Below are positions 40,133 to 62,520 of a DNA stretch of 64,000 nucleotides, in pieces. Numbering within the stretch: position 1 is the stretch's first letter; each line of letters opens with the position of its first letter. The position numbers were made by a program, and so were the translations under genes. The notes under the pieces are model-generated. The model searched no databases, was not told the origin of the DNA, and was given only the letters and a program-made list of their open reading frames with translations. The stretch is taken from assembly GCA_964531275.1 (NCBI GenBank), contig CAZHDZ010000002.1, positions 122,180 to 186,179 on the forward strand, given 5' to 3'. This DNA comes from an uncultured Gammaproteobacteria bacterium. Lineage in GTDB: Bacteria; Patescibacteriota; Microgenomatia; Levybacterales; GWA1-39-11.

Positions 40133-40951
40133 TTATAGTGACCAGATCTTGAAGTTCTTAAATTCTACGTCCATAAAATCTGTTCTTATTCCTGCGTAAT
40201 TATCTTCACTTATAGGTCTTGAGCCATATCTAGATCCCTCGTCTGTTGCTGTAAGATACGTGGTCCATGAGCCTCTATTCTGCAAATCTCCTTCAAGCGT
40301 TATGTTAACCTTTCCATTGTCATTTCTGACAACGGTCTTAATACCTATCCACGAGTTGAGGGGAATGAGATTTGGATTTGAATTTCTATTATATGTTCCA
40401 TTGAGCACTTTCTTGTAGGCCAATGTATAGTATGACCCATTTAATTTCTTTTTAATTACCATAGCACCATCAACTCTTAATCCTGCGTAGTACAGAGTTT
40501 GGCCATCCATTGCGTATCTGCTCATGAGTAAAATTCCATTCCCTTCACTTCTATTACTACTAGAAAGCGCGTTGTAACGATTTATTTTGAAATAATTTGT
40601 TTGAGCAAAATTGCCCCATCGTGGTCTTGTGATAAGCCTTAGAAGATTTTGTGGTTGTCTTCCTCCGTTAGTATCAGTACTGCTACTTTTTGCGTACATT
40701 TGGAAAATAGGACTGGAAGAAGGAAGATCTCCCTGGAGTGATTTACCAATTCCGTCTGTGACTGTGATTGTTCCACCAGAATTAACCCACAAATTTGGGT
40801 TATTGCTCGTATCCATGCTGCCGGCGCCGAGAATTGTCATATTCTGGCCTGGGGTAAATGAATAAAGAATAGCTGCGTAAGCTTGAGTGGCTCCAACTAA
40901 ACTTAAGAGAAAAAGGGCAAGCAGTATAACTTTCATTTGATGCTGCTTCAT
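40133..40951 (-). CDS. secreted protein with a LamG/concanavalin-like jelly-roll domain
   Basis: Signal peptide MKVILLALFLLSLVGATQAYA. The beta-rich body contains a YAGLRVDG block similar to the C-terminal domain of the adjacent deacetylase. Confidence 0.4.
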   Translation of the reverse strand: MKQHQMKVILLALFLLSLVGATQAYAAILYSFTPGQNMTILGAGSMDTSNNPNLWVNSGGTITVTDGIGKSLQGDLPSSSPIFQMYAKSSSTDTNGGRQPQNLLRLITRPRWGNFAQTNYFKINRYNALSSSNRSEGNGILLMSRYAMDGQTLYYAGLRVDGAMVIKKKLNGSYYTLAYKKVLNGTYNRNSNPNLIPLNSWIGIKTVVRNDNGKVNITLEGDLQNRGSWTTYLTATDEGSRYGSRPISEDNYAGIRTDFMDVEFKNFKIWSL

Positions 40952-42540
40952 CGGTCCTCATAATATACCTTTACGTCACTAATTTCAACTTTTGCCTTAT
41001 TCTGAGTTCCTGAATACACACCAAATCCAATTCCACCATTTGGAATTGTGCCAACGGTTCTAGAAGATATGAGAGTCCTATTGTTGTAGAGGCATTCGAT
41101 TAAATTGCCTGTTACTCTCATTCCTATATATGCTCCGTCAGAAAGCGTTAAATAGTAATTACTTCCTGTCTTTGTAAGTACTATTCTTTTGCCATCTACT
41201 TTTTGGTCAAGAGTTACTCCGTCAGGGTTATAGGTGCAAACAACCATATTATTTCCATCAATTGCTCTTGAGATTACACTAAAGTTCTTTCCACTAACAA
41301 GCTTTGCGTTTGCACTTACAGTGTAGTCAGTCCAAAGATATGACCCGTCTAAAAATGTTGTTAGACTTGCACTTTTGGTGCCAACATTCAACGTCATAAC
41401 TCCTTGAGAAATTGTGTAGTCGAGATTTCCATTGCTACTTACCCAATTCTCGTTTTCTTCTACAAAAAAGTTGCCCGTAAAAGGAAGACTTTTTGATTGG
41501 CTCGCAGCCATGGTATGTATAAATTCCGTAATTTTTACATTCTCTGAGGACTTTATTCTTCTAACAAGTCTTTTCTCTGCATTGATTTTAAAATTATTTC
41601 TAAAGTAACCGGTTCTTTTATCTGTTTTAAATTGGATCATATATTTGTTGTATACACTTGCAGTAAGCGCCAAGATCTCCCCAGCAGTACTTTCCGTGCC
41701 ATAATCTCCAAATGGAAATGCATAACTTGTTACTGTATTGCCCAGAAGATCTTCAATATCTCTTTTCGAATCTGTTAAGTCCTGAATAATTCTTTCTCTA
41801 TATTCCTTGTCATTTTCTAGTCTGTTCTCACGATCAAGCCATTTCTTGTTAGTCATGAAATGTCCCCTCTTCCCTTCTTTATTTATTTTGATAAGATTGT
41901 GATCATTTCTTCCATGAGACTGTATATCCCATCTACCTGTCGCAGCCATTTCCAGCACTTCTTCTCGAGTTATGTAATATGGGGATTTTTCATTTGTAGT
42001 CGAATGAGCAGTGATAACATACATAATTGCCTTAAAGCCCAATGCCTGAAGTAAAGGATCGGAGTTATAGTAGCTCGTCTTAATACCGTCATCGAAAGTT
42101 AAAAGAAATGATCTATCGGGAAGTTCAATCTTTCCTTCCAAAAAATCTTCAAATTCTCTAAGCGTTACGGTCCTGTACCCTTCCTTCTTAAGAGCAAGCA
42201 TTTGTTGAGTAAAATTCTCGAGAGAGATTTCTTCAGTAGGATCTTCAATCTTACCGCTCTCTCTTGTAACTCCGTGATATACAAGAACCGGAACTGCATC
42301 CGCATTTCTGTTTTCAATTTTATTAACAACAAGATTAGATACAACTTTTTGATAGTTATTTAGATCGTCATTCATTTGCTTCTGTAACTGACTCTCACGA
42401 CTTTGCACTTTGGCAGCTTTTTCAAATATGAAATCAATTGCCGAAGTGTGAAAATAGTACTTTCCGATTAAATTGGAAAGTACAAAAAAAAGTAGAAGAA
42501 CTCCAACTATCTCTACAAGAAATTTTAACCTCTTATCCAT
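40948..42540 (-). CDS. polysaccharide deacetylase (CE4, NodB domain) with N-terminal TM anchor and C-terminal LamG-like domain
   Basis: LLTFDDGIKTSYY (TFDDG motif 1), HGRNDH (His motif), and an N-terminal TM helix. The C-terminal roughly 170 aa form a jelly-roll-like domain. Confidence 0.7.
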   Translation of the reverse strand: MDKRLKFLVEIVGVLLLFFVLSNLIGKYYFHTSAIDFIFEKAAKVQSRESQLQKQMNDDLNNYQKVVSNLVVNKIENRNADAVPVLVYHGVTRESGKIEDPTEEISLENFTQQMLALKKEGYRTVTLREFEDFLEGKIELPDRSFLLTFDDGIKTSYYNSDPLLQALGFKAIMYVITAHSTTNEKSPYYITREEVLEMAATGRWDIQSHGRNDHNLIKINKEGKRGHFMTNKKWLDRENRLENDKEYRERIIQDLTDSKRDIEDLLGNTVTSYAFPFGDYGTESTAGEILALTASVYNKYMIQFKTDKRTGYFRNNFKINAEKRLVRRIKSSENVKITEFIHTMAASQSKSLPFTGNFFVEENENWVSSNGNLDYTISQGVMTLNVGTKSASLTTFLDGSYLWTDYTVSANAKLVSGKNFSVISRAIDGNNMVVCTYNPDGVTLDQKVDGKRIVLTKTGSNYYLTLSDGAYIGMRVTGNLIECLYNNRTLISSRTVGTIPNGGIGFGVYSGTQNKAKVEISDVKVYYEDR

Positions 42541-43859
42541 ATTGATTTTTTAATAGTAAAAAGGGAATAGAATATCAACCAAGAAAGAATAAAGGTAGAC
42601 ATAAGGCTCATGATTGGTCTAAAAATCCACTTATAATCGCTGTTTTCTTCGAATTTATACGCAAGCCCGTACAAAAAGCCTACAAATGCAATTCCTACTA
42701 TATACAAAAAACCTGTCTCAAAGTTACCCCGGAGAGGCAGGTAGATTATGTGTCTTGCTACAATAAAAGGTCCAAGCAATACAAAAAGGATGTGCGTATA
42801 ATAGACGGCTGCAGGAATAAAAGGCTTCTTCCAATAAAAGCTACCGGTAAAGAAAATATTGCGAATAAAACTTTTCTTCCATCTAACTTGCTGCTTAATA
42901 AATTTAGGAAAAGTATCGGGAATATTTGTCCAAACTTTAGCAGATTTTGAGTACACCACTTTCCAATCCTTTGCGGGATAATTAACTGAAGTTACAAATG
43001 GGGAATCTTTGTATTGCTTCTTTAGTTTTTTCTCAAGAAATTTACTTCCCAGTACGAAGGCTGTTAATGTTCTATCTGTGGCAAATCTAAATTCTTGACC
43101 CAAAAATGTGTCACCTTCCCAGGCAGGTATGAAATTGTAAATTGCTTCTCGCCTAAAAACAGCTAGGGGTCCTGAGACACAAGTTACCGCGCCAAAGACA
43201 CTTTCAAAAGCTTTTCTAATAGAGAACTGGCCCTCATACCAAGTGTCCTGAATTTTAGTAAGCAGGTTCTTCTCTGAGTTAAGAGCTCTGCAATGTCCAC
43301 TGACTGCACCAATTGATGAATCGTGTGCAAATATAAGCTCGATCTTTTCAAGAGCATCTGGTGCAAGCACAGAATCGCTATCAGAAAAAGCAAGAATGCT
43401 ACCTTTGGATTCAAAGATTGCTTTTGCTATTGCTTTTTTCTTCCCAAGATTTTGAGTTAATGTAATAACTTTAATTTTGTAATTCTTAGCCAGCCTTGCA
43501 AGTAGAAGTGGTGTAGCATCGTCACTTTGATCATCAACAATTATTATTTCTTTATTTGTGTAGGTTTGGTGAATGATAGAAAGAACACATCTCTCGATAA
43601 GTGCTTCCTCATTTCGCACTGCAACAATACACGTAATAAGATTTCGTCCACCTTTAGTAAAGCGCGAATTCTTAGCAACAATATATGGATCCTTATAGAA
43701 ATTAAAAACAGTAAAAAATACAAAAAGAATTCCAAGAGTAACGGTCACTCCATAACCCAAGAAAAGCACACTCTCATTTCCTTGCGAGAATAATAGCTTC
43801 CCAGCAAGTATAGAAACAATCGTTAGAAGTATGACGTGAGAGGCTATTTTTTTTCTCAT
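42525..43859 (-). CDS. family 2 glycosyltransferase (membrane-embedded, PgaC/Bcs-like)
   Basis: IIVDDQSDD, AFSDSDSV (DxD), QVRWKKS (QxxRW), and N- and C-terminal TM helices. Confidence 0.7.
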   Translation of the reverse strand: MRKKIASHVILLTIVSILAGKLLFSQGNESVLFLGYGVTVTLGILFVFFTVFNFYKDPYIVAKNSRFTKGGRNLITCIVAVRNEEALIERCVLSIIHQTYTNKEIIIVDDQSDDATPLLLARLAKNYKIKVITLTQNLGKKKAIAKAIFESKGSILAFSDSDSVLAPDALEKIELIFAHDSSIGAVSGHCRALNSEKNLLTKIQDTWYEGQFSIRKAFESVFGAVTCVSGPLAVFRREAIYNFIPAWEGDTFLGQEFRFATDRTLTAFVLGSKFLEKKLKKQYKDSPFVTSVNYPAKDWKVVYSKSAKVWTNIPDTFPKFIKQQVRWKKSFIRNIFFTGSFYWKKPFIPAAVYYTHILFVLLGPFIVARHIIYLPLRGNFETGFLYIVGIAFVGFLYGLAYKFEENSDYKWIFRPIMSLMSTFILSWLIFYSLFTIKKSIWIRG

Positions 43860-45142
43860 TATATTGTTCTGCCAATGCCTTTGTAATAAATATCTTGATC
43901 CTTAAAAGCGTCTCTACTTAGGAAATTTCTTCCATCGACAAGAACCTTAATGCCATGCTTTTTTAGAAGCTCTGGAGTAAGCACTTTGAATTCCTTATGT
44001 GTTGTAGCAAGAAGGATTGCATCAGCTCCTTCCAGAGCCTCCTCGATAGAATTAACATTAGACTTGGCAGGAATATATGGGTCATAAATTCTTAAAATAG
44101 CTCCTTTATTCTTTAGATCCTCAAGCATTTCATAGGCAGGACTTTCACGATCATCATCAATATTGCCCTTGTATGAAAGCCCCAAGAAAGCAATTTTTGA
44201 TCCTTTTACAGATTTTTCAACTGAATTAAGTCCATTGAGCATTAACTCAACTGTTTTTTGAGGCATTTGATTATTTATTCTTCGGGCAAGAGAAAGGAAA
44301 TCGTGATGAAATCCATTCTTCTTTGCATATTCAATAAGATAATAAGGATCCACCGGAATGCAGTGCCCACCCACTCCACATCCTGGGTAATGTGCCATAA
44401 ACGCAAAAGGCTTCGTTGCAGCACCATCGATAACATTAACAACATCTATCCCTAGCTTTGAAAAGGATAATGCCAATTCATTTACAAAAGCAATATTAAT
44501 ATCACGAAAAGAATTCTCAACAACCTTACAGGCTTCTGCTTCTTTCAAAGAACCCATCTCTTTCACTGATGCTGTGAGAATTGTTCTATAAAAAGTTGCA
44601 GCACGTTCCAAGCTTTCATCATCAAAGCCACCAACAACTCTATTTATATTTTCTACATTCCATTTTGGATCTCCGGGATTAATTCTCTCTGGGCAGTGAC
44701 TTAAGAAGAAATCAATTCCACATTTTAAGCCTGAGCTTTCCTCAAGAATTGGCGCCATGACATCTTCACTTACTCCTGGGTTAACTGTCGACTCCAGAAT
44801 AATTAGTTGACCTTTCTCTAAGTGCTTACCGATTGATTCACATGCAGAAACCACTGGTCCGTAATCTGGCATATGATTGTCATCAATTGGTGTAGGCACA
44901 CAAACAATAACTATTTCTGCTCCTTTTATTTTTGAAAAATCATTTGTTACGGTTAGATTTGATGTAGGAAGATATTTTTCAACAGCTTCATCTTTGAAAG
45001 TAGGAATTTTATTATTGAGCTTTTCGACTGTATTAGGATTTCTGACAATGCCAGTGACACTATAACCTTTCCTATCTGCCAAAAGAGCCAGTGGCAAACC
45101 CACATAGCCTAATCCTATAATTGCTATTTTACTACCACTCAT
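43859..45142 (-). CDS. nucleotide-sugar 6-dehydrogenase (UDP-ManNAc/UDP-GlcNAc dehydrogenase WecC/TviB-like)
   Basis: N-terminal IAIIGLGYVGLPLA Rossmann, a catalytic GGHCIPVDPYYL block, and a C-terminal UDPG_MGDP_dh_C-like end. Confidence 0.8.
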   Translation of the reverse strand: MSGSKIAIIGLGYVGLPLALLADRKGYSVTGIVRNPNTVEKLNNKIPTFKDEAVEKYLPTSNLTVTNDFSKIKGAEIVIVCVPTPIDDNHMPDYGPVVSACESIGKHLEKGQLIILESTVNPGVSEDVMAPILEESSGLKCGIDFFLSHCPERINPGDPKWNVENINRVVGGFDDESLERAATFYRTILTASVKEMGSLKEAEACKVVENSFRDINIAFVNELALSFSKLGIDVVNVIDGAATKPFAFMAHYPGCGVGGHCIPVDPYYLIEYAKKNGFHHDFLSLARRINNQMPQKTVELMLNGLNSVEKSVKGSKIAFLGLSYKGNIDDDRESPAYEMLEDLKNKGAILRIYDPYIPAKSNVNSIEEALEGADAILLATTHKEFKVLTPELLKKHGIKVLVDGRNFLSRDAFKDQDIYYKGIGRTI

Positions 45143-45211
45143 AGGTACATATTATATCTTATAATGATTCCTTAGGCAACCGAGAGTATGTGGTTTTTAA
45201 AGAGACATCGC

Positions 45212-46747
45212 TTAACTTTTTCTTTTATATACGAAGATTTCACCATTTCTATATACAACATCAAAATACTTGTTGAGCTGAACATTTGAACTCAACTGTC
45301 TCCATATTGCATCGGTCTTATCATGTCTCACAATTAACCACCTAACATGATCCTGAGGTTTTTCCAATGCATTCTCCCAGTGGGGATGATTACCAACATA
45401 GATAATATTTTCAAAAGGTATATTAAGGTCAATTGGGTCTGCACTTCTCGCAAAATCGTCAAACATTACATAACCATAATCGTAATTATCCCTAACAAAG
45501 TTTGTTGCAGGAGAGGGTCTTCTAGAAGAAAGTCCTACAATTCCATCTTGAAGAGACACCGGTGTCCCACTGACCACAAATAGATATGCCTGAACAGCAA
45601 TTACGGCAATAATTACTGGTTTTAGGTACTTATGTAAGGAAGCTGTTAAAAGAGCTAAAAATACTGCTACGGCAGGGACCATAATAATTCCATACCGAAT
45701 GTTAAAAAGAGTCCACTGGTAGTCTTGTGGAACAAGCTCTGGCACTAGTAAAATTGAAATACCCAAGTAAAGTGTTATCACATAGAAAATATATGGAGTA
45801 AGTAAGGCTAAGCTGGCCGCAAAAGTTGCTCTGCTTTTAGAAAAAATTGTTTTCCCTATTCCTAAAAGTACTCCAAGCAATGCGACAATTGAAACTACAA
45901 CACCTGCATTTTGAGCTGATGCTAACGAATAATAGGTAAGAGAATTTGTAATATTTTTATATGATGGAAGTTCTCCGCGAGCCAACCAATCCATTTGTTG
46001 CGATTTTGCAGAATAAGGGCTATTTAAATAATAAGCAGGATCATTAAATATAAGATAACACCACAATGACCAGAGACCTATTCCAAAGAATGCAAGAACT
46101 GCATATATTACAATACTGCCTTCTATCTTCTTGTACTTATACCCTTTCAGTAAGCCAATGATAACTACTGCTATGACTTCAAAAATTACTAGAAACCACG
46201 CGTCATAGCGCATTAAGGTTCCTGCAAAAGCTGCAAATGAAGCAAGAATAAGTGGCCCAATCGTTCCTTTCTTCGCCCAAAGGACAAGATAGTACGAGGA
46301 TAAAATCAAAGAACAAATTAAGGGTAATTCTCCGAGGGGAGTTGTCTGCATATATAGTATGTTGGGATTTAATGCAAAAACTACAACTCCTACGATTTGT
46401 GCAAACCTTGAAGGGGTAAAAAGTCGAATTAGCTTGTATACATATAGTACTGAGACAACATAACTCAATGCTGCAACAATTGTTCCTGCAAGGCCACTTC
46501 TCCACAGAAAATCATTCCATACAAATGGGAGCATAAGCATATGAGGTAGTGGCAACCATGCTCCTCCTAATTGTCCAAAGCCAGGAGTAAGTCCGCTAAC
46601 AACTCTTTTTGCTATATTTATATGTGATTCAGCATCTCCATAAGCAAGTATTAAGTTGTTGGTGAATGCATAGAAAATACTACTCATGCTTGCTACACAT
46701 GCAAGTAAAATAATAGAAAGTAATATATTTTTGTCTACTCTTGTCAT
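45212..46747 (-). CDS. GT-C-like multi-TM membrane protein (paralog of the N-domain of 36919.. and of 52378..)
   Basis: AYGDAESHINIAKRVVSGLTPGFGQLGGAWLPLPHMLMLPFVWNDFLWRSGLAG aligns with the other two paralogs. About 12 TM helices. Confidence 0.5.
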   Translation of the reverse strand: MTRVDKNILLSIILLACVASMSSIFYAFTNNLILAYGDAESHINIAKRVVSGLTPGFGQLGGAWLPLPHMLMLPFVWNDFLWRSGLAGTIVAALSYVVSVLYVYKLIRLFTPSRFAQIVGVVVFALNPNILYMQTTPLGELPLICSLILSSYYLVLWAKKGTIGPLILASFAAFAGTLMRYDAWFLVIFEVIAVVIIGLLKGYKYKKIEGSIVIYAVLAFFGIGLWSLWCYLIFNDPAYYLNSPYSAKSQQMDWLARGELPSYKNITNSLTYYSLASAQNAGVVVSIVALLGVLLGIGKTIFSKSRATFAASLALLTPYIFYVITLYLGISILLVPELVPQDYQWTLFNIRYGIIMVPAVAVFLALLTASLHKYLKPVIIAVIAVQAYLFVVSGTPVSLQDGIVGLSSRRPSPATNFVRDNYDYGYVMFDDFARSADPIDLNIPFENIIYVGNHPHWENALEKPQDHVRWLIVRHDKTDAIWRQLSSNVQLNKYFDVVYRNGEIFVYKRKS

Positions 46748-48864
46748 ATGGCACCTTTAAAAATATTGTTCTTCAAATGTAAACCGTGCTTTGTCTTTGA
46801 CCAATGGTGTGGTGCAGTAATTAGCTTATATACAGCCATCCATGCAGCGGCACTCATGAGTAACCAATATATGGGCACAAAAAGAGCGTATTTAATAAGC
46901 GCATAGTGCCCATGCTTTGCGCATCCGATCATGTAGTAATACATGTAAAGGAAATTCCCACAGATGAGAGAAGCAATGCCAAGATAAAGAACAGGTACTG
47001 GGAATAATGATTCAATTATTGGACCAAATTGAGACCTAAATAAGAAATAGAGAATTGTTAGCATCCACATTGCGGGGTTAACAAACATTGAAAATATTTT
47101 GCCCCCAATAACCATTTGAAAAAACAAAAGATCAGGTTTTCTAAATGTACTTGAGAAATCTCCTGGTTTTCTCATGTGCAAGAAATACGTTTGAATGTAC
47201 CCTTTTATCCATCTCGTTCTTTGCCAAAACCAGTTATTTAAATCACTATTTGCTTCCTCTAGAGTTACTGAAGAAACTATGGCTGTTTTGAATCCTAATT
47301 TTGCGATTCTCATCCCTAGATCTGCGTCTTCTGTTACATTAAATGCATCCCAACCCTTCAACATCTTAAGATCTGAAGTTCTAAAGTGGTTTGAGGTTCC
47401 ACCTAATGGGATTGGAGCTTTTATAGATTGTAGGCCCGTAAGAACCAAATCAAACCATAGTGAATACTCGGCTGTAAACGCTTTTGTCAGAATATTTTGA
47501 TGGGGATTGTAAAAATTTAACTTAGCCTGTATGCACGCTGTTTTACGCCCTGCCCTCTCAAATGCAAGAACTGCTTTTTTAAGTTGCATAGGTTCTGGTG
47601 CATCTTCGGCATCAAAAATAACAACAAACTCTCCAGTCGCCCGAAGCAATCCATAATTACAAGCCTTTGGTTTTGTCTTTGGGAATGAATGAGGAACAAT
47701 AATTGCTTCAAAATATGAAGGTAGGTGAAGTTTTTCTATGTAAGAAAGGCTTTCAGTATCATCTTCCTCCAAGAGCAGCTGAACCTGCAACTTATTTTTT
47801 GGATAGTCTAACTTTGATATCGCTTGGGTAAATTGAGGGATTACCTGCCATTCTTTATAAAGCGGGCAAAGAATTGTGTACCTTGGGAGGCGTTCATCAT
47901 TGATTTCTGAAAGCGCTACATCTTCTATAACTATCTCTGCTGGATTTGCAAAGCTTCTTATGATTAAGAATAGGTTAAAAAGTAAATCCAGAAAATATAA
48001 TGTCGTTATAATCCCAACAAAGGAGATAAGAGCTAACTTCCAGTCTGAAGCAAAGGAATACACGCCAGCAGTTAGCATTAAGAGCATTAGTGTAATTTGT
48101 CTTTGATTGAATCTATAGAATGCACTTTCATCCTGAGGAAGCTCTGAGTAATGAACAAATTCTTTCCCGTCGTAATGAAATCCATTGCCTTTTTCTTTTG
48201 CAATTCGTGGGTGAAAAGGAATTACTACGTGTCCAAGAACTTTAAGACGCAACTTTTCCTTAACTAATGTCATTATCCCATGAAGGGTTCTATTGGCAGG
48301 TTTTTTGAAGAATCTTCTTGAAGTGTTGGCTTTGAAAGCAGTAACGATATAGCCGGCGTCTTTTGAACTTTGTATAAATTCAAAGTCAAAAATAGATGAA
48401 TTTAAATTTAAACGCTCATAAATTTCTCTCTTAAAAACAACTAAATCCAGCTGAAGATCTACACCTACTAATTTTCTCAAAAACCCCTTAGCTACTCTTT
48501 TATTGCTTGCGTAGACAATGTCGTTTGATTCCAACTCTTGTATCATTTGACTAACGATATCAATCGGGTATTTGCTTCCAAATTCCATTACGCAAATATT
48601 CTTATACGATGAATTTTTCAAACCTCTTTGAATGTTGTAACCACGACCCGGCTTTCCGTCTCTTTTTATTAACTTAATGGGATAATGGCTTAAGAAAACC
48701 CTCGTGTCCCACTCAGAACTTTCTGAAAATGTGTCGGCAACAAAAATTATTTCGTACGAGTCACGCTGACCATCAAACAAAGCGTCAATTTTAGTTACTA
48801 TTGACTCAAAACTTTTTCTGACGCCGGATACATGAACAATAAAGGAGGTTTTTGGAAGATTCAT
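46744..48864 (-). CDS. bifunctional glycosyltransferase: N-terminal DPM1/ArnC-like GT2 domain, TM region, C-terminal processive BcsA/NodC-like GT2 domain (paralog 2)
   Basis: The N-terminus has IIFVADTF...RDGKPGRG. The C-terminal half has the YTILCPLYKEWQVIPQF block shared with 34017.., plus FDAEDAP, TEDADLGMR and QRTRWIKGY. Confidence 0.75.
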   Translation of the reverse strand: MNLPKTSFIVHVSGVRKSFESIVTKIDALFDGQRDSYEIIFVADTFSESSEWDTRVFLSHYPIKLIKRDGKPGRGYNIQRGLKNSSYKNICVMEFGSKYPIDIVSQMIQELESNDIVYASNKRVAKGFLRKLVGVDLQLDLVVFKREIYERLNLNSSIFDFEFIQSSKDAGYIVTAFKANTSRRFFKKPANRTLHGIMTLVKEKLRLKVLGHVVIPFHPRIAKEKGNGFHYDGKEFVHYSELPQDESAFYRFNQRQITLMLLMLTAGVYSFASDWKLALISFVGIITTLYFLDLLFNLFLIIRSFANPAEIVIEDVALSEINDERLPRYTILCPLYKEWQVIPQFTQAISKLDYPKNKLQVQLLLEEDDTESLSYIEKLHLPSYFEAIIVPHSFPKTKPKACNYGLLRATGEFVVIFDAEDAPEPMQLKKAVLAFERAGRKTACIQAKLNFYNPHQNILTKAFTAEYSLWFDLVLTGLQSIKAPIPLGGTSNHFRTSDLKMLKGWDAFNVTEDADLGMRIAKLGFKTAIVSSVTLEEANSDLNNWFWQRTRWIKGYIQTYFLHMRKPGDFSSTFRKPDLLFFQMVIGGKIFSMFVNPAMWMLTILYFLFRSQFGPIIESLFPVPVLYLGIASLICGNFLYMYYYMIGCAKHGHYALIKYALFVPIYWLLMSAAAWMAVYKLITAPHHWSKTKHGLHLKNNIFKGAI

Positions 48865-49043
48865 TTGATACCTCCTGTTCGTGATTTTATATATCGATTA
48901 AATTCAGCCCAGTCTATTCTGTAGGATTTACCGATTTTAACAGCGGGTATTTCTCCCGAATGAATGTACGAATAGATAGTAATAGGATTGAGTCGTAATA
49001 CTTGCGCTATTTCTTTAACTGTTTTGAAATTCTTATTAACCAT
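48861..49043 (-). CDS. excisionase/MerR-like helix-turn-helix DNA-binding protein, translationally coupled to the downstream bifunctional GT2
   Basis: FKTVKEIAQVLRLNPITIYSYIHSGEIPAVKIGKSYRI matches the excisionase-family HTH (LTVKEAAELLGVS..TIYRLI..GELPAVKIGR.WRI). Its stop overlaps the GT2 start by 4 nt. Confidence 0.65.
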   Translation of the reverse strand: MVNKNFKTVKEIAQVLRLNPITIYSYIHSGEIPAVKIGKSYRIDWAEFNRYIKSRTGGIK

Positions 49044-49218
49044 TATAATTTAATATAGTATGATATATTTATATATAGTTACTATAACACTTAGCTTCAA
49101 AAAAGCAAGCTTTTTTATAGAGATATTGAGGTATTCATACAATTCTCTTACTTAATCCATGAACAATGAAAGCTATTCTAAATAGTCCAAATTCTGCTTG
49201 AAAATATCGAATTCCAGA

Positions 49219-49752
49219 CTAAGCCTGAGGTTTTGCCACAACAACAAATCTTTTAGAATCTAAAAAGCCTGTACACGTATAAATTGTTATCCTACTGTCG
49301 TTAGTGTTGTCGATTATGTACGTCTGAGATGGATTAACAGTTGCTGTATACTCAATAACGAATTTTTTCTTATAGCCGTTTTCCATAATTATGTAGACTG
49401 TTTGACCAGGTTTTACTTTTGGAAGATCTGCCAAAAGATAATTCCAGTTGTGACCATACATCACACTGTTCCCTTTTTGTCCTGGTAGAGGTGATGAAGA
49501 CAAGTATGAGACCCCTTGGTTGCTTGTTTCCCACATATTCCCTTTTGTAATAGCAGGAATAATAGGCAAATTAACTTTTATAGACGGAATCTCTATTCTT
49601 TGAGGAGCTTCAAAACTAAGAACATTGACGGAAGTAGGAGCTTTTTCAAAGGACAATAAGTATGGAGAATGACGAAGAAAGAAAAGATAACAACTAAAGA
49701 TAAGAAAACCTAAGCCTAATAATAGTATGAGATTGGGAATTAAGTTTCTCAT
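49219..49752 (-). CDS. sortase (class E-like transpeptidase)
   Basis: N-terminal TM anchor, His box VMYGHNW, catalytic ITIYTCTG (TLxTC) and a downstream Arg (KRFVVV). Confidence 0.7.
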   Translation of the reverse strand: MRNLIPNLILLLGLGFLIFSCYLFFLRHSPYLLSFEKAPTSVNVLSFEAPQRIEIPSIKVNLPIIPAITKGNMWETSNQGVSYLSSSPLPGQKGNSVMYGHNWNYLLADLPKVKPGQTVYIIMENGYKKKFVIEYTATVNPSQTYIIDNTNDSRITIYTCTGFLDSKRFVVVAKPQA

Positions 49753-49763
49753 AAAAAGAAATC

Positions 49764-50363
49764 TTAATTTGAACGAGTTTTTAATCGAAGAATGAGTCCT
49801 GTTATCGTAAGCAATACACCAACTGTGAAGATTTCAGCTATGAAAAGCATGTTTCCTGTTGAAGCCAAATTGGTTCCTTGAGCAGACTGAACAATAGAGC
49901 CTTTGCCGTCACTTCTTCCATCAGTTCTACCATCGGTTCTACCATCAGTTCTTCCATCTCCTCCGCTCGTACTAGATGCAGAGCATGTATAATTCTTATT
50001 TTGAGCTAGATACGGGACATCCGAAAGTCCCCATGCCTCTCCGCTAGGAACAAATATCCACCCCTGACTTTGATATACCTTAATTTCATCTTCAGTTAGA
50101 TTTCCGATTTTCATCCAGTTTGTTTGGATACCAGCACCATCACTTCCACAAAAACATTGCATTGCATTTTCGCCTTCAGCATATACAACATCTTTTCCTA
50201 TTTTTGATCCAATACCAACTATGCCATGGGTGCCATCCTGATAATTTGCAATAACTGTTCCAGTTGGAACAAGACAAGAAGTGAAAGAATCTTGTGCAAA
50301 AGCAGGTTTTGTCAACGCAAGAACACAGGCTGCTAAAAATGATAAGAGAAGCAATTTATTCAT
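49764..50363 (-). CDS. sortase substrate: secreted protein with DGRT repeats and a C-terminal LASTG sorting signal
   Basis: Signal peptide MNKLLLLSFLAACVLALTKPAFA, then GDGRTDGRTDGRTDGRSDG repeats, then LASTGN plus the hydrophobic MLFIAEIFTVGVLLTITGLIL and a basic RLKTRSN tail (cell-wall sorting signal). Confidence 0.7.
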   Translation of the reverse strand: MNKLLLLSFLAACVLALTKPAFAQDSFTSCLVPTGTVIANYQDGTHGIVGIGSKIGKDVVYAEGENAMQCFCGSDGAGIQTNWMKIGNLTEDEIKVYQSQGWIFVPSGEAWGLSDVPYLAQNKNYTCSASSTSGGDGRTDGRTDGRTDGRSDGKGSIVQSAQGTNLASTGNMLFIAEIFTVGVLLTITGLILRLKTRSN

Positions 50364-50431
50364 ATCGAAGCAGTAGTATAGTATATTACTCTGGGCTTGT
50401 CAACAAGTATATTGCTAGCCTAATTTCTCAA

Positions 50432-51385
50432 TTATAGAGACGTCTCAAGAGGCACAAGAGGCATTGTAATCGCTTGTAAATATGTTAGTGCTGAATGTAA
50501 TTGTCCCAACAACATATAAGCAAGAATTCTCATTGAAAATCCCAAATAAAGAAAAGCTACAACCAACCCCAAAGTGCTTGGATGATGCTTCTTCTGATAA
50601 TATTTAATGCCCTGAATTTGACGTTGCAATATATACAATTTGTGGAATTTCTTGTCTGTAGAAGCACCACAAAGGTGCGTTGAGGTAAATTTAGGCGTAA
50701 ACATAAACTTAAATCCTGCATCATGAATTCTTTTACACCATTCTAGATCGTCCATATAAAGAAATATTCTTTCGTCATTCCCTCCAGTTTTTTCAAACAC
50801 TTTATACTTTAAAAAGTAGAAGCATGTTGGTGCCCACTCTACCTGCAAATCCTTTTTGTATAGTTCTTCTTTGTAACCATAAATTTTACTTATTCTGTCC
50901 TTAATAAAAGGAATACTTTCAAAACCTAATAGCCAAAAAATGGTTCTTCTAGGTGTAGGTAGATACCCGCCATAAGTTTCAAATTTGTGCTCGGCATTGA
51001 ATAATTTACAAATCATCAAATCAGTATCTGGGTTCTTTTCCATGTAATTAAAAGAGTTGGCAATCGCATCTTCTTCAAGATACAAATCAGAATTTAATAA
51101 GAGTATAAAATCCGCATTTTTAGATGCTCTCATGCCAACGTTATATCCGATCGAAACCCCAGCATTTGTAGGATTAATTATTAAAGTTACTTGAGGGTAT
51201 TTTGACTTGATCATTTCAACACTTCCATCCGAGGAAGCATTATCAACAACTATAATTTCTGCCTTGTGCTTACTTGTCTTCTGACAATACGCAACGGCAC
51301 TTAACGCTTTTTGTATGCAAACGTCAGTAATGTCTCTTGTGTTGTAGTTAAGAATTACGAGTGATACTTTCATATTATTTTTCAT
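50432..51385 (-). CDS. family 2 glycosyltransferase (WbbL/rhamnosyl- or hexosyltransferase-like, soluble GT-A)
   Basis: MKVSLVILNYNTRD...IIVVDNASSDGS and DDLEWCKR (DxD region). The ORF track starts at 51439; the ATG at 51385 or 51373 is more likely. Confidence 0.7.
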   Translation of the reverse strand: MKNNMKVSLVILNYNTRDITDVCIQKALSAVAYCQKTSKHKAEIIVVDNASSDGSVEMIKSKYPQVTLIINPTNAGVSIGYNVGMRASKNADFILLLNSDLYLEEDAIANSFNYMEKNPDTDLMICKLFNAEHKFETYGGYLPTPRRTIFWLLGFESIPFIKDRISKIYGYKEELYKKDLQVEWAPTCFYFLKYKVFEKTGGNDERIFLYMDDLEWCKRIHDAGFKFMFTPKFTSTHLCGASTDKKFHKLYILQRQIQGIKYYQKKHHPSTLGLVVAFLYLGFSMRILAYMLLGQLHSALTYLQAITMPLVPLETSL

Positions 51386-52376
51386 TGACCTCCTGATAGA
51401 ATGTCTTAAGCTCCAATGCAGCTGCCTTAGGCATCCCATCTTTTGTCCAGATTTCAGTTGATCCGCCAGTATTTATCCAGTAATTAAGTCCAATAACATT
51501 TGGGTTTTCGGACAATAAATCCAAGACTTCTTTTACCCATTCTGCCTGCTCCACTTCGCTCATATTTCCATTAATATCAGGTATGGGCGCGCCAAACTCT
51601 CCTAGAATAACTTTCCCTCCGCTCATTTTTGCAATTTTTGTTATATCAGAATTTAATTGTGTAGGGCTTTTGACATAGTGGTCTATCGTTACAATTCCCC
51701 CCATTTTTTCTGTGGTATTTCGATCCATAACAAGCTTTGCAATGTCAAAATTCATAGAACTGTAATTTGATGCCACTTTCTTTCCTATTTTTTCAAACTC
51801 TTGTGTTGTTGCGTTGTATTCATCGATAAGAAATTTTCTGTGTCCATTGACATCTCCGTTCTGTCTAGGGTCACCAGGCCCTCCATTTTCACATTCAGGG
51901 CACGGAGAAAATACGTCGCCATCTTCAAAGAGTTCAGAATTAGTTCTGATGAACTCTCTTGTCAACTTAAGATGTTGTGCCCTATCAATCTTCGAATACC
52001 CAAACCAACCTTCCCATCCAGAAAAATTTCCACGAAACCACACTTTTAATTTATTCTCGCGAGCAATTTTAACCCAACGTCGCAAGATAGGAAGAAATTC
52101 TGAGTCATATGGAGTGGCAATCCCCACGTGAGTTGCTCCAATTTCTGCTATTTCCTTTACCTGAAGCTCTATAGTCTTATTAAATGATTCATCATTCAAC
52201 TTTTCTCGAGATAGATCTCTTGAGTACTTCATTGTATCAACGGATTCAAACTTCCATCGGTTCTCCGCAGGCTTAAGATAGTTATAGGCAAAATATAGAG
52301 ATATAGCTATTAGAATTACCCCTACTGTAATAAGACCTGAAGCAAAATGTTTTTTATGTTGTGGCTGTATATCCAT
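51375..52376 (-). CDS. membrane-anchored glycoside-hydrolase-like (GH5/cellulase-like TIM-barrel) protein
   Basis: N-terminal TM helix, then IGATHVGIATPY...KLKVWFRGNFSGWEGWFGY, similar in pattern to the GH5 domain of 36919..39525. Confidence 0.4.
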   Translation of the reverse strand: MDIQPQHKKHFASGLITVGVILIAISLYFAYNYLKPAENRWKFESVDTMKYSRDLSREKLNDESFNKTIELQVKEIAEIGATHVGIATPYDSEFLPILRRWVKIARENKLKVWFRGNFSGWEGWFGYSKIDRAQHLKLTREFIRTNSELFEDGDVFSPCPECENGGPGDPRQNGDVNGHRKFLIDEYNATTQEFEKIGKKVASNYSSMNFDIAKLVMDRNTTEKMGGIVTIDHYVKSPTQLNSDITKIAKMSGGKVILGEFGAPIPDINGNMSEVEQAEWVKEVLDLLSENPNVIGLNYWINTGGSTEIWTKDGMPKAAALELKTFYQEVNEK

Positions 52377-52377
52377 A

Positions 52378-54006
52378 TTATCTTTGTGGCCCAAGAGAAG
52401 CCTCTGTATTAAGGTTCTTTACATATTCCTTCTTTAATTGATAAATGTCTGCAAATGGGTAGCTTCCCACCTTGTCATATCTTGCAAGACCACTATTATC
52501 TTTAAGGAGTTTGAATGTTTGATCATTTAAATCATTGGTTCTCATAATAATCCACCTCGCCCATCTGTCAGGTGAAGAAGTTGCAGCCAACCAGTAATTG
52601 CCAGTACCTTCATGAATAAATTTCTTCATAGGATATCCTGATGAGAAAATTATCGCGTCATGAGATGCCGCAGATATTAATATAAAACCGTCATCCCCTG
52701 CATTATTCTTGAGCCATCCCGAAACCTCAGAAACATTTTTTTGACTTGAACCAACCTGAGCATCATCAATTGTTACTGCATCATGATTAACAAATGTAAA
52801 GAAGGCTACAAATAAAAGAATCCCAATAATAAGAAGCTTCATCTTCTGAGCTCTCCCGATTAGATAACCTATAAATATTGCGATTGATGGCATAAGCATA
52901 AGACCATATCGCACGTTGAACCAAGTATTACCGGATAAACCTTGAATAAAAAGCACAGACTGTCCCATAAAAAGTGCGAGGATATTAAAAACTAGAGGAG
53001 CAAAAAGAGCTAATGCCGCAATTTTATAGGCTGTTTTAATTTTCTTGTCTAAGTAAAAAACAATTGCACCAATTGCTCCAAGTACAAGCACGAGAGCATT
53101 GGAGTTATATGCGAGAGCATACAAATATACCTGAGTAGAAAATATTATATTTTTCTTAGTTTCTAGATTGCCTGCGGCCTCAAGCTGCAACTGCTGTGCG
53201 TAAGCGGAATAAGGACCATAAATGAAGTAAAGTGGATCTTTAAAAATTATAAGATTCCATAAAAGCCACAGCACTACACCTAAAGCACCAACAGTAGCAA
53301 AGAATAGAAATCTTGCCTCGGCCCCCCTAAATCCAATTTTCTTGTACGTATAAATCGTAACGATAATAGTTGAAACGGCAAGCAAGAACCATCCATCATA
53401 ACGAATTAATGTAGAAAGCATAACCCAGAATGAAGCTTTTATTAATGAAAGAAGTTTCTCGCTTTTAAAGAAGTTGAGTAATTCAAAGCAAGCTGCTGTC
53501 ATAGTAGCAAGTAGCAAAAGTTCAGTCATTGCAGTTGATTGCATGTATAACACGTTAATATTTGCTAAAAATACGGCAACCGCGACAACTCTCCCAAGAA
53601 CATTTACATTTAACCTTTTTAGGTAGTAATAAATTAAACCGCCGGTTGCTACAAAAGAAATCATTGATTGCAATGCGCCCGAAAGTCCCGAATGCCACAT
53701 AAAGTCGTTCCAAATCGTTGGAATCATAAGTAAATGAGGCAAAGGAAGCCATACAGATCCTAACTGCGCAAGCCCAGGCTTAAGTCCTTCAACAGCACGA
53801 CGTCCAATATCCAAATGTGATCTGGCATCGTTATAAGAAAGACCTAATCCATTTTGTAAGTAAAAATAAAATGCACCAATAGATATCAAGGAAAGGACCA
53901 GCATGAGAAACACAATCCCGTAGCGATTTACAACATTCTTCCCTTTTGCAATTAACTCACTTGGGACAGTTATAGAAATTGTTGGATCGAAGAATTTCTT
54001 AAGCAT
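52378..54006 (-). CDS. GT-C-like multi-TM membrane protein (paralog of 45212.. and of the N-domain of 36919..)
   Basis: SYNDARSHLDIGRRAVEGLKPGLAQLGSVWLPLPHLLMIPTIWNDFMWHSGLSG, with about 12 TM helices. Confidence 0.5.
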   Translation of the reverse strand: MLKKFFDPTISITVPSELIAKGKNVVNRYGIVFLMLVLSLISIGAFYFYLQNGLGLSYNDARSHLDIGRRAVEGLKPGLAQLGSVWLPLPHLLMIPTIWNDFMWHSGLSGALQSMISFVATGGLIYYYLKRLNVNVLGRVVAVAVFLANINVLYMQSTAMTELLLLATMTAACFELLNFFKSEKLLSLIKASFWVMLSTLIRYDGWFLLAVSTIIVTIYTYKKIGFRGAEARFLFFATVGALGVVLWLLWNLIIFKDPLYFIYGPYSAYAQQLQLEAAGNLETKKNIIFSTQVYLYALAYNSNALVLVLGAIGAIVFYLDKKIKTAYKIAALALFAPLVFNILALFMGQSVLFIQGLSGNTWFNVRYGLMLMPSIAIFIGYLIGRAQKMKLLIIGILLFVAFFTFVNHDAVTIDDAQVGSSQKNVSEVSGWLKNNAGDDGFILISAASHDAIIFSSGYPMKKFIHEGTGNYWLAATSSPDRWARWIIMRTNDLNDQTFKLLKDNSGLARYDKVGSYPFADIYQLKKEYVKNLNTEASLGPQR

Positions 54007-55540
54007 GTACCCTCCTTGCTTTAAATGTAAATATAAATATCAGAACTAAAATAGGTGCAGTAAGTAAGGCATAGAAGAGTGTTGGACTTATAAAGTTTTT
54101 TAAAAGGGAGTTGTAGACAAAAGATTTTGAATTACCTGAAAGCACAAAATTTAAATTGCGGTCTATTGAGTACCTCTGAACTTTACCTGTTTGCTTTTCT
54201 AATGCCAAGACCTGAACCTTTGGAGGGTTTGCACTTGAGCTAATTGCTCCCAACGCATTAACAGAAATAGAATAAGAAGCCATAACCAAAAATAAAATTA
54301 AAAAACTTTTTTTCTTAACATACTCAGTAATTGCTTGAGCAAGCAAAATTGAGAGGATAGCATATGCAGGTATTAGATAACGAGAACCAAATGCCCATCC
54401 TCCCCATGGATCTCCCCATAGCGAATAAAGAACTACATTCATAACAGCAATAGAAACAAGGAGATTCACTTCTTTTTGTCTTTTCTTCCAGACTGCAAAT
54501 ATACCCAAAATCCCAAGAAGCATAATTGGCGTAAAATAAACGATTCCACGATCAGGACTTAAGAAGTGTATATAAAATCCATTGAGAAGATTTCTTGTTC
54601 TAAAGAATCCTGTTGCCGTCTTGTCTTGATTCCGATCTCCTGCAACTATTTCCTGCACAGGCTGATCTACTACAAGATTTGAAGTCGTTGGCTTTCCAGC
54701 AGCATTAATAGCAGCAACAGAATCAATCGTTCCAGATAACTGCAACGGCTTATTATATGAACCCAGACTGAACCACACATAAAATGCCAGTGGAATAAGA
54801 ACTACTAACGGGGTGAGTATTGAAAGTAGATGTAAAGAGATAGTAAATCCCTTTTTCTCCATTTTTCCCCAAATTATTCTTCCTGTTGCCCAGAGAGCAA
54901 TAGGCAACATGAGAACTAAATTAGGATAATCAACAGGTACGGAAACGGCTAATAAAAACCACACCCCAGCTAAGCTAGCAAAATTCTTCCATCTCAGCAA
55001 TAAATAAACAGACAAGAGAATTAAGAAAAGAGAAATGTGATGCTGATATAAAGTTACTGCATAAGTAAATGCAGGTGTTGCAAAAAGAAATAGTGCGCTC
55101 GCGGCCAAGGAGGCGTAGATGTTAGCGCCAAGAATTCTCGCTATTTTTACTATTAAGAATGCGTTAATAAGAGCAAATAACGCAATTATTGCGACCGTCC
55201 CAACCTGGGCGATGCCCAAAACCCTACCTAATAAGTAGCCTGGCATTGCAATAAAAGAAACCCCAGGGGCAAAAAGGGAAACATAATTTCCATTTGTGTA
55301 ACCTAAATCGGGAGTTGCAAACTTAGCAACAGGAAGACGGAATATAAGAGAATTGTCCTCAATGTATGAATATAACAACGCAAATCTTCCTCTCTCTGGA
55401 GAAAGCTCGAAAGGGCCAAATTCTTTCCATTTTGGTGTGTTAAGATCATTGGATGTAGGATTACCTGATATTCCCCTAAGAGAAACCAGAAGTACTAAGG
55501 CAAAGAGAATAAACGTACTGATAAAAATTAATTTACGCAT
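53999..55540 (-). CDS. GT-C family (ArnT/PMT-like) membrane glycosyltransferase, paralog of 35505..36932
   Basis: ERGRFALLYSYIEDNSL...TNGNYVSLFAPGVSFIAMPGY parallels ERGRYALTRAIVEDKSF...KNGHYYSRFPAGMSFLMAPAH. Confidence 0.5.
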   Translation of the reverse strand: MRKLIFISTFILFALVLLVSLRGISGNPTSNDLNTPKWKEFGPFELSPERGRFALLYSYIEDNSLIFRLPVAKFATPDLGYTNGNYVSLFAPGVSFIAMPGYLLGRVLGIAQVGTVAIIALFALINAFLIVKIARILGANIYASLAASALFLFATPAFTYAVTLYQHHISLFLILLSVYLLLRWKNFASLAGVWFLLAVSVPVDYPNLVLMLPIALWATGRIIWGKMEKKGFTISLHLLSILTPLVVLIPLAFYVWFSLGSYNKPLQLSGTIDSVAAINAAGKPTTSNLVVDQPVQEIVAGDRNQDKTATGFFRTRNLLNGFYIHFLSPDRGIVYFTPIMLLGILGIFAVWKKRQKEVNLLVSIAVMNVVLYSLWGDPWGGWAFGSRYLIPAYAILSILLAQAITEYVKKKSFLILFLVMASYSISVNALGAISSSANPPKVQVLALEKQTGKVQRYSIDRNLNFVLSGNSKSFVYNSLLKNFISPTLFYALLTAPILVLIFIFTFKARRVHA

Positions 55541-55541
55541 A

Positions 55542-56579
55542 TTATTTTTTTAAAGAAACCAGCTTTCTGTAATTGCTATAAAACAGCCTATTGCTAACTA
55601 ATTTTTTTCTCAATTTGGATAGATTGACAAGCAAAATTCTTGCAGCAAGATTATTGGTGTAGTAAATATCATATTGCATTTTTGAGATGCTAGTAAAGCT
55701 TCTTTTTAACATGTCGTCTCCTCTACTAAAATCGAAAAGTTCCATTCCTTCTTTGTGCAGACCCTCAAATAACGAATATGCAAGAATTTTCCCTGGTGTT
55801 AGGAAAGCATAAGAATTGTTAAAAGATTTATTTATACCATGGTATATTTTTCCCGATCTTACTCCTATTTCGTATGCAATTGGCTTTTTTTTGTAATAAA
55901 GAACATTCATCCCAATATTGTCTCTCCCATTTTTTACTAAGCTGGCAAAAAACGCCCTATTCAGCGGATTATTAAATGTTCCTATGTTCTTTTTTTGTCT
56001 ATAGCTAATTCTGTCTATCTTCATGGCAATTTTTAGAGACTGAACGCTACCTCTATTCATCTCGAATGAAATATCACGTCCGTATTCTTCATAAACTTTC
56101 TTAATTTTTCTCATGTTCTTACTTTTAACAAATCTGAAAGGATTATTTTCAAAGGGCAGTTGGAGATTTACGCCAGTCTCGAGTTTTTCAATGCCTCGCT
56201 GTGAAAATAAACTAGCTAGATCTTCTGGGACCTCAGTCAGAACAAAAGAGCCTTTAGCCTTCAGGGCATTAAAAAGTGTATTAATAGTCGCCGTCTCATA
56301 TTTATCGATAAGAAGTGCACTTCTATCAACAAAAAGCCCACCAGGGTTTGTATAGAAAGAAATACCAAACTTCTTTACCAAAACAAGAGGCAATAAGGCT
56401 TTTAGCTTGTTTTTATGTCGTATGCAGATTATTACGGGTTTTAAATCAGGATATACTTCACTACATATCTGAAACCACACATATGAATTGAAGAAATGAG
56501 CACATACTGAGCTATCCCACAGGGATTTCCATTCTTCTATTAAGCTTTCGTTTATAAATTCAATATATTCGATTTTCAT
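55542..56579 (-). CDS. FemAB/CelD-like GNAT-fold acyltransferase (Acetyltransf_6-like)
   Basis: 345-aa soluble protein with a N...W...F...Y...W N-terminal pattern and a C-terminal GNAT-like core. Weak assignment. Confidence 0.35.
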   Translation of the reverse strand: MKIEYIEFINESLIEEWKSLWDSSVCAHFFNSYVWFQICSEVYPDLKPVIICIRHKNKLKALLPLVLVKKFGISFYTNPGGLFVDRSALLIDKYETATINTLFNALKAKGSFVLTEVPEDLASLFSQRGIEKLETGVNLQLPFENNPFRFVKSKNMRKIKKVYEEYGRDISFEMNRGSVQSLKIAMKIDRISYRQKKNIGTFNNPLNRAFFASLVKNGRDNIGMNVLYYKKKPIAYEIGVRSGKIYHGINKSFNNSYAFLTPGKILAYSLFEGLHKEGMELFDFSRGDDMLKRSFTSISKMQYDIYYTNNLAARILLVNLSKLRKKLVSNRLFYSNYRKLVSLKK

Positions 56580-57331: not shown

Positions 57332-57332
57332 A

Positions 57333-58406: not shown

Positions 58407-58407
58407 G

Positions 58408-59667: not shown

Positions 59668-59669
59668 AA

Positions 59670-62114: not shown

Positions 62115-62115
62115 G

Positions 62116-62307: not shown

Positions 62308-62520
62308 ATAATTTTACTAGAAGCTGTGAATTATAGCCAAGCTAAGCTATTCTGTCAACTATAGGGTTCTATCTACTGCTTTGAATTATTGTTAAGTTTG
62401 CTTAACTATGCTTTAGACATAAATGCAATGTACTGTGTTGCACAACATAATCGCATGGAGATGTATGAACTTGGTAGGATTTTTGTCACACAAGGAAAAG
62501 AAATGTAATATACTTAATTA

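Follow-up and report, generated by a model that had tools for sequence, protein, structure and literature searches.

Two genes for small winged helix-turn-helix (HTH) proteins, here called HTH1 and HTH2, each head what appears to be a surface-glycan operon and stand directly before the gene of a giant family GT2 glycosyltransferase (GT2a and GT2b, respectively). Both pairs lie in a 64,000-nucleotide stretch of contig CAZHDZ010000002.1 (assembly GCA_964531275.1, positions 122,180 to 186,179), referred to below as the window; the genome is deposited as that of an uncultured Gammaproteobacteria bacterium and is placed by GTDB in the Patescibacteriota. The organism is an ultra-small bacterium of the Microgenomates type. 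Sequence comparisons and structural models suggest that each small protein is an operon-specific, BldC-like, stand-alone winged HTH (wHTH) regulator, possibly an autoregulator, of the glycan-synthase operon that its gene heads, a reading to which a probability of roughly 0.55 is given. The four genes, with protein lengths in amino acids (aa), are these:

48861..49043, minus strand: HTH1, a 60-aa stand-alone wHTH protein (HTH_17 / excisionase-family DNA-binding domain), first cistron of operon A
46744..48864, minus strand: GT2a, 706 aa, with a degenerate GtrB/DPM1-like N-domain lacking the DxD motif and a BcsA-like processive GT2 synthase domain (QRTRW)
62116..62307, minus strand: HTH2, a 63-aa stand-alone wHTH protein (HTH_17), first cistron of operon B
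59670..62114, minus strand: GT2b, 814 aa, whose first GT2 domain resembles polyprenyl-phosphate sugar transferases and keeps the DAD motif, and whose second is a BcsA-like processive synthase domain with TED and QRSRW

The small genes and their coupling to the synthase genes

An earlier note on this DNA, made from the sequence alone, had described both pairs, and the open reading frame (ORF) lists agree with its coordinates, strand and spacing. In operon A the two genes overlap by 4 nucleotides (nt; ATGA), the start codon of GT2a (ATG, 48864..48862) sharing bases with the stop codon of HTH1, and the Shine-Dalgarno sequence of GT2a (AGGAGG, 48876..48871) lies within the 3' end of HTH1. HTH2 and GT2b are separated by 1 nt. 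The two HTH proteins are 40% identical and the two synthases 44% identical over 715 aa. A six-frame scan of the 64-kb window with a hidden Markov model (HMM) matched HTH1 and HTH2 only, with no third copy, and Rfam and tRNA scans gave nothing relevant close to either locus.

The small ORFs are real genes under strong purifying selection, with dN/dS values of 0.07-0.19 for six orthologue pairs (0.07 for HTH2 against its counterpart at the related locus L001). This bears on the idea that such an ORF is only a cis-acting leader, whose translation delivers ribosomes to the synthase start or unfolds it while the peptide itself is unimportant. The short leader without a Shine-Dalgarno sequence and the tight coupling to the synthase start would suit such a role; however, dN/dS is about 0.1 on the amino-acid sequence, the product is a confidently folded domain typical of its family, and GT2a has a strong Shine-Dalgarno sequence of its own, all of which make a leader ORF very improbable.

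Family, fold and DNA-contact face of the HTH proteins

The excisionase/MerR-type identity first proposed for the small proteins is supported by both domain models and structure. The cut-off of PF12728 HTH_17 (27 bits) is passed by HTH1 (50.1 bits, E 3e-13) and HTH2 (46.2 bits, E 5e-12), as is that of NCBIfam TIGR01764, "excisionase family DNA-binding domain" (cut-off 28.8; HTH1 48.2 bits, E 1e-12; HTH2 51 bits), and the nearest structures are those of BldC, Xis and MerR-family proteins. The signature quoted for both, GE(I/L)PAVK(I/F)G, fits HTH1 but describes HTH2 only in part, which reads GSLEAVEFGGHYRV. The HTH fold itself is confidently modelled: AF2 gives pLDDT values of 82.9 (HTH1) and 81.2 (HTH2) for a beta-alpha-alpha-beta-beta-alpha winged HTH in both proteins, and both chains end after helix 3, with nothing beyond the wHTH. 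In Foldseek searches of the PDB the top matches are BldC-DNA complexes (TM 0.71/0.78-0.86, rmsd 1.3-1.9 A), followed by Pukovnik Xis, RacA, NmlR, pSK1 Par and further MerR-family DNA-binding domains; RdfS is also among the structural likenesses, and the best matches are all DNA-binding wHTH domains.

An alignment of 50 sequences of the HTH family has 13 invariant and 12 nearly invariant columns. In BldC, phosphates are contacted by T27, T29, W31 and K33, bases by K26 and R30, and the wing residues H46, R47 and R48 dock in the AT-rich minor groove (PMC5859096). By HMMER alignment the HTH2 equivalents are T25, Y27, Y29 and K31 for the phosphate contacts, L24 and K28 for the base contacts, and H43, Y44 and R45 for the wing. 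T25, Y27, Y29, Y44 and R45 are invariant across the 50 sequences, L24, K28 and H43 are at least 90% conserved, and K31 is the majority residue with less than 90% conservation. Because the positions equivalent to the BldC contacts are so highly conserved, the DNA-binding face looks intact. HTH1 differs from HTH2 in recognition-helix and wing residues (K28S, K31H, H43S) and carries a net charge of +7, against +6 for the aligned segment of BldC.

Many top matches of the HTH profile search are single polypeptides with 2-10 tandem HTH_17 domains (P0123, 479 aa; P0125; P0131; P0146, 818 aa). These covalently linked domain arrays recall the multimeric DNA binding of BldC and Xis.

Conservation of the HTH-synthase pair

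A synthase search with one genome per GTDB species returned 282 relatives, of which the best 80 loci were examined. Most are in metagenome-assembled genomes (MAGs) of Patescibacteria, or Candidate Phyla Radiation (CPR), including Levy-, Curtiss-, Woese- and Roizmanbacteria, WWE3, Dojkabacteria and Saccharibacteria; among named organisms the closest are MAGs of Levybacteria, Curtissbacteria and Woesebacteria (Microgenomates). Among the GTDB representative MAGs with this CPR-typical synthase, many bear the title "uncultured Gammaproteobacteria", "Pseudomonadales" or "Bdellovibrionales", apparently placeholder or mislabelled taxonomy.

An HMM built from both HTH proteins and iterated to convergence found an HTH gene in 22 of the 80 synthase loci, always one per locus, directly upstream and on the same strand. 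In these 22 loci the tblastn match begins -7 to +68 nt from where the HTH reading frame ends, and by called codons the synthase start lies -17 to +26 nt from the HTH stop. No HTH gene of this kind occurs away from a synthase in about 900 kb of related DNA. Informative loci, those with at least 260 nt of upstream DNA, number 71, and all 22 HTH genes are among them. In a neighbour-joining tree of the synthases the HTH loci fill one large clade, which includes several HTH-less sub-lineages; besides one outlier, L054, there is GT2a, which is very divergent. The identities of HTH proteins and of their synthases vary together (Spearman 0.58, for pairs that are not independent). Upstream of HTH-less synthases no other HTH type was found in nine small ORFs, and a search there for pseudogene remnants of the HTH gene gave noise only (E >1).

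The same picture is obtained from the HTH side. HTH2 has 206 small homologues, and all 120 that were listed are stand-alone proteins of 50-98 aa. In seven of the seven contexts sampled on long contigs, the HTH gene is followed by a GT2-GT2(-GT4) protein of 1,170-1,570 aa. HTH1 has a single other homologue in 5.8 billion proteins (at L088, 80% identity), which overlaps the GT2a orthologue by 4 nt; the operon A pair is thus known from two loci only. Conservation next to orthologous synthases, on which the interpretation of the pair had been made to depend, is therefore found both in 22 of 71 informative relatives and in 7 of 7 HTH-side contexts, and, to judge by these comparisons, the pair is a real, vertically co-inherited and lineage-restricted unit. 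No description of an HTH-synthase pair in CPR bacteria was found in literature searches.

The genes upstream of the seven contexts vary (CTP synthase, a zinc-ribbon protein, RND/ABC pump genes, sortase) and are ordinary chromosomal genes, a point that bears on the suggestion that the HTH protein is an excisionase (recombination directionality factor) or serves a switch that swaps the synthase cassettes by inversion or recombination. The "excisionase family" domain models, the structural likeness to Pukovnik Xis and RdfS, and the presence of two paralogous cassettes on the same strand would fit such a switch. However, a scan of 55 of the 58 window ORFs of 110 aa or more showed no recombinase or integrase, in keeping with the earlier note's own remark that the window lacks one, and none was found in the seven annotated foreign contexts. 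Most genomes sampled have a single cassette, and the upstream neighbours differ from genome to genome. The paralogues had been thought close enough to recombine, but they are only 44% identical as proteins, and the longest DNA shared by the cassettes is 48 nt at 81% identity. The inverted repeats that would be expected to flank an invertible segment are absent; repeats in the DNA of the two cassettes and their surroundings, direct or inverted, do not exceed chance level. A recombination switch is accordingly a very poor explanation of the pair.

Promoters and candidate operators

Each operon has a conserved block of candidate control sequence directly upstream of its HTH gene:

62330..62364, minus strand: promoter of operon B, with CTATAG at 62364..62359, -35 TTGACA at 62358..62353, a 17-nt spacer and -10 TATAAT at 62335..62330
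49044..49110, minus strand: promoter/operator block of operon A, conserved in comparison with L088

The operon B promoter, whose CTATAG element abuts the -35 and whose leader, about 16 nt long, lacks a Shine-Dalgarno sequence, is the sole 12/12 sigma70 match in 45000..64000, and CTATAGTTGACA occurs once in the window. The promoter block is kept in L001 and eight further relatives while the flanking DNA diverges. The operon A block is about 93% identical to that of L088, compared with about 78% for the HTH1 coding sequence, and the DNA further upstream is unalignable. It holds two candidate promoters, TTGCTT (49108..49103)-16-TGnTATAGT (49086..49081) and TTGAAG (49100..49095)-17-TATATA (49077..49072). 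A perfect palindrome, TATAGT-A-ACTATA (49086..49074), overlaps the candidate extended -10 of HTH1 and occurs once in the window, and a third ACTATA comes 20 nt downstream, at 49059..49054. Upstream of HTH1, A[CA]TATAT repeats of approximately 10 bp are no more than suggestive of the direct repeats on which BldC binds head to tail.

Near-consensus sigma70 promoters are seen in the upstream regions of 28 non-redundant HTH genes. A perfect TTGACA-17-TATAAT is present at the window's HTH2/GT2b locus (WINb) and at L001, L003 and L005. The best -35/-10 match within 200 nt averages 10.6/12 for HTH-linked genes, 9.5 for HTH-less relatives (Mann-Whitney p 8e-6) and 8.6 for intergenic background, and the spacer is 17-18 nt in 25 of 27 HTH promoters. 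The -35 is at -49 to -51 from the ATG in most HTH loci, and therefore the leader is about 16 nt and has no Shine-Dalgarno sequence. Directly before the HTH ATG a conserved a-a-(a/c)-t-(a/t) is seen across the 28 loci (for example at 62308..62330 in the window); GT2a, by contrast, has the canonical AGGAGG.

A TATAG/TATAAG element abuts the -35 in the HTH2 clade (ccTATAGTTGACA) and lies at the start of the spacer in other clades (TTGACAnTATAGG or TATAAG). Of 24 HTH promoters, 16-18 have such an element no further than about 10 nt from the -35, compared with 8-9 among 53 background sites of the TTGAC-plus-(-10) kind (Fisher p 1e-5 to 1e-6), statistics that are inflated by the kinship of the loci and by overlap of the motif with -10-like TATA and the aaCTATG start context. 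A wider operator, AACTAT(A)/TATAGTT, had emerged from k-mer enrichment (9-13x background) and was set aside: many of its matches are aaCTATG start context or -10/-35 boxes. Because the k-mer matches mapped to start context and promoter boxes, only the narrower test of TATAG near the -35 was used, and its outcome is suggestive.

The HTH protein could instead be a pleiotropic or architectural regulator with many genomic targets, among them the synthase. The element that it recognizes would be short, BldC runs a large regulon through degenerate AT-rich direct repeats (PMC5859096), and CPR genomes are AT-rich (the window has a GC content of 36.7%). The two HTH paralogues, however, are each tied to their own synthase paralogue, which argues for a local and specific function, the subfamily was never met apart from a synthase in the DNA scanned, and the longer candidate operators are single-copy in the 64 kb. 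A many-target regulator is thus considered unlikely.

The autoregulation model and the points that weigh against it

Of the three roles originally put forward for the small protein (autoregulator, recombination factor, or a domain recruited for a non-DNA role), the first is the best supported, by the position of its gene as first cistron, the conserved promoter with a TATAG-type element, and the BldC-like fold and contacts. The conserved module consists, in order, of a near-consensus sigma70 promoter, a short leader without a Shine-Dalgarno sequence, the HTH gene and the tightly coupled giant GT2 gene. In its own promoter, the HTH protein would most likely bind the AT-rich TATAG-type elements adjoining or overlapping the -35/-10, and thereby set how strongly its own operon is transcribed. 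The sign is most likely negative, as a homeostatic limit on a very large and costly membrane synthase; repression is favored on two grounds: with spacers of the optimal 17 nt, the promoters are near-consensus as they stand, and the -35/-10 is overlapped by the candidate sites. Spacers of this length also exclude activation of the MerR type, which works by distorting the spacer. HTH1 and HTH2 each probably control their own operon only, cross-regulation being unlikely because of the K28S, K31H and H43S differences and because the promoter elements differ.

Several observations weigh against this model. Similarity of the HTH proteins to BldC by sequence is not significant (phmmer gives E 0.45-0.52 for 6AMA/6AMK, and the structural alignment shows about 25% identity). 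The weak sequence matches (E ~0.5) are to the same proteins as those of the fold search. The HTH1 promoter scores 9/12 and is not near-consensus, and TATAG is also found near 3-4 of 9 HTH-less promoters, in addition to the inflation of the motif statistics already given. The HTH gene is always accompanied by a two-domain synthase, but the HTH, DPM1-like and synthase domains do not travel together as strictly as had been supposed: 49 of the 71 informative loci have two-domain synthases without an HTH gene. Because two thirds of related synthases work without it, the HTH gene is dispensable for the synthase family as a whole. Finally, the HTH2-type subfamily is near-neutral (mean net charge +0.7, isoelectric point 7.5), which is unusual in a DNA binder, and acidic residues flank its wing (LEAVEFGGHYR) where typical HTH_17 proteins, HTH1 and BldC have basic ones.

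The charge of the HTH2-type subfamily is compatible with a non-DNA role, in which the HTH protein is an accessory subunit, assembly factor or sensor of the synthase, or is sequestered by it as feedback, and in which tight or overlapping translation makes it beside the nascent synthase. The stop/start overlaps and short gaps of essentially all loci, the exclusive co-occurrence and co-divergence with the synthase, and the precedent of MamR, a 72-aa HTH_17 protein within a structural operon (PMC3905215), would also fit. Yet a Rosetta-stone fusion of HTH and GT2 was looked for and is absent from the 206 close homologues and from the best 150 of 23,732 profile matches, and no other positive evidence was found. 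The residues equivalent to the DNA contacts of BldC are the most conserved positions, HTH1 is strongly basic, and a protein-binding role leaves unexplained a conserved promoter with a specific flanking element. This role is improbable, though less so than that of a many-target regulator.

A combination of the two functions is more doubtful still. An HTH2-type protein might be a feedback coupler that partitions between its own promoter DNA and a cytosolic domain of the synthase, such as the GtrB-like domain or its pseudo-GtrB counterpart in GT2a. This idea rests on the near-neutral charge, the acidic wing flank and the constant co-translation with the synthase. If it were true, operon transcription would report the occupancy or activity of the synthase at the membrane, in a partner-switch or "trigger-enzyme"-type circuit for the CPR envelope glycan.

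The synthases

The description of both enzymes as giant two-domain GT2 proteins holds for GT2b, which has two intact domains, but in GT2a the N-domain is degenerate, and both window forms are shorter than most relatives. By PDB sequence matches, GT2b resembles ArnC/DPMS/GtrB at aa 7-220 (E ~1e-18) and BcsA at aa 344-629 (E 2e-12). Its N-domain retains the DxD motif (LIDADLQ) expected of a polyprenyl-phosphate glycosyltransferase. In GT2a this motif is lost (VMEFGSK; DAD -> EFG), and with it the mark of such an enzyme; Pfam GT2 models give no match on aa 1-250 and match only aa 327-620. The orthologue at L088 (L088:404-1165) is 67% identical and likewise has no DxD, and the N-domain of GT2a is probably a retained pseudo-glycosyltransferase domain. 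The synthase domain has the marks of a processive GT2 synthase in both paralogues: FDAED, TEDADLG and Q(R)(S/T)RW are present, and Pfam Glyco_trans_2_3 and Glyco_tranf_2_3 match. All NCBIfam equivalogs score far below cut-off and thus give no assignment to a specific polymer.

Most synthase relatives are single polypeptides of 1,540-1,620 aa with the order GT2 (polyprenyl-P transferase-like), GT2 synthase, GT4 (for example L009, L011-L013, L015-L019 and L021; L016:569-5284), the extra part being about 450 aa without a Pfam match followed by GT4. The window synthases are the short, split form, with GT4 as the separate next gene in operon B (58408..59667).

Operon contents and surroundings

Judged by their gene content, operons A and B are surface-glycan operons for a synthase-dependent glycan. 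The genes downstream of the two synthases, assigned by Pfam, are as follows:

50432..59667, minus strand: rest of operon B, ORFs abutting or overlapping
58408..59667, minus strand: GT4 of operon B
57333..58406, minus strand: second GT4 of operon B
56579..57331, minus strand: PIG-L deacetylase of operon B
55542..56579, minus strand: Acetyltransf_6 protein of operon B
51375..55540, minus strand: three proteins of operon B without a Pfam match
50432..51439, minus strand: GT2 of operon B
40948..46747, minus strand: rest of operon A, tightly packed ORFs
45212..46747, minus strand: PMT_2 (GT-C) protein of operon A
43859..45142, minus strand: UDP-sugar dehydrogenase of operon A
42525..43859, minus strand: chitin-synthase-like GT2 of operon A
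40948..42540, minus strand: polysaccharide deacetylase of operon A

In the window (49219..49752) and in two unrelated metagenomic contigs (L091:2974-3531 and the JGI contig of P0119), the gene directly before the HTH-synthase module encodes a sortase. The window sortase is preceded by a 199-aa putative sortase substrate (49764..50363) with a signal peptide, (DGRT)n repeats, an LASTGN motif and a C-terminal transmembrane segment; its gene contains a 12-nt tandem repeat (49906..49953) and has an 11/12 promoter of its own (50403..50375).

A single-domain BcsA-like GT2 paralogue is encoded on the plus strand at 34017..35504, within a region (34017..39525) that may be a separate synthase system. 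Three small proteins (181, 189 and 158 aa) are encoded upstream of it and two large ones (475 and 868 aa) downstream, none with a Pfam match. Among the few other regulators in the window is a pair of an OmpR-type response regulator and a histidine kinase (26353..28253, plus strand).

Comparison with known regulators

The window HTHs are members of HTH_17/TIGR01764 and are BldC-type by structure; they are neither classical MerR regulators nor, by context, excisionases. Excisionases such as Xis of mycobacteriophage Pukovnik (4J2N), RdfS (8DGL) and other HTH_17/TIGR01764 proteins share the domain model, fold and size of the HTHs, but in the DNA scanned the latter lack an integrase partner, a mobile-element context and att-type repeats, and their neighbours vary between genomes. 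Classical MerR regulators (CueR, SoxR, BmrR, NmlR) have the same wHTH topology, and here too the candidate operator lies in or next to the -35/-10. The HTHs differ in having neither a dimerisation coiled coil nor an effector domain, and their promoters have 17-nt spacers, compared with the 19-20 nt of activation by distortion.

Placing the gene of a small regulator at the head of a polysaccharide operon is a familiar, ordinary design. EpsR of the Lactococcus eps operons is a small DNA-binding protein encoded by the promoter-proximal gene of such an operon and follows the same logic as the HTHs; however, EpsR-type proteins are XRE-family HTH proteins rather than HTH_17 wHTH proteins, from another phylum, and serve a Wzx/Wzy-type rather than a synthase-type pathway. 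Patescibacteria/CPR have small genomes with few recognisable regulators, and surface glycans presumably play a central part in their epibiotic life. A conserved module of strong promoter and BldC-like wHTH, dedicated to the largest glycan-synthase gene and standing before it, would offer a concrete handle on control of the CPR envelope, the promoter being short and the protein only 60 aa long.

MamR of magnetotactic bacteria (PMC3905215) is, like the HTHs, a small HTH_17-like protein of 72 aa encoded in a structural operon, mamAB. Its NCBIfam similarity to the HTHs is weak (E 1e-4, far below cut-off), so that they are not members of its family by score, and MamR differs in not being the first cistron and in belonging to an unrelated pathway.

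The closest comparison is with BldC of Streptomyces (PDB 6AMA/6AMK), the protein that founded the "BldC family", whose members are stand-alone wHTH regulators of MerR-like type (PMC5859096). Both are wHTH only, without coiled coil or effector domain, and HTH1 (60 aa) and HTH2 (63 aa) have the size and single domain of that family (about 60-70 aa). BldC is also their best structural match (TM 0.71-0.86) and shares with them the wing motif GGH-x-R, equivalent helix-3 contacts and AT-rich candidate sites. By sequence the match is not significant (E 0.45). BldC oligomerises cooperatively on direct DNA repeats, in an asymmetric head-to-tail manner. BldC is basic, pleiotropic and not linked to any one operon, while the HTHs head a single synthase operon each and the HTH2-type is near-neutral. 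If the regulatory reading is correct, the HTHs would add an operon-specific example to a family hitherto known as pleiotropic regulators.

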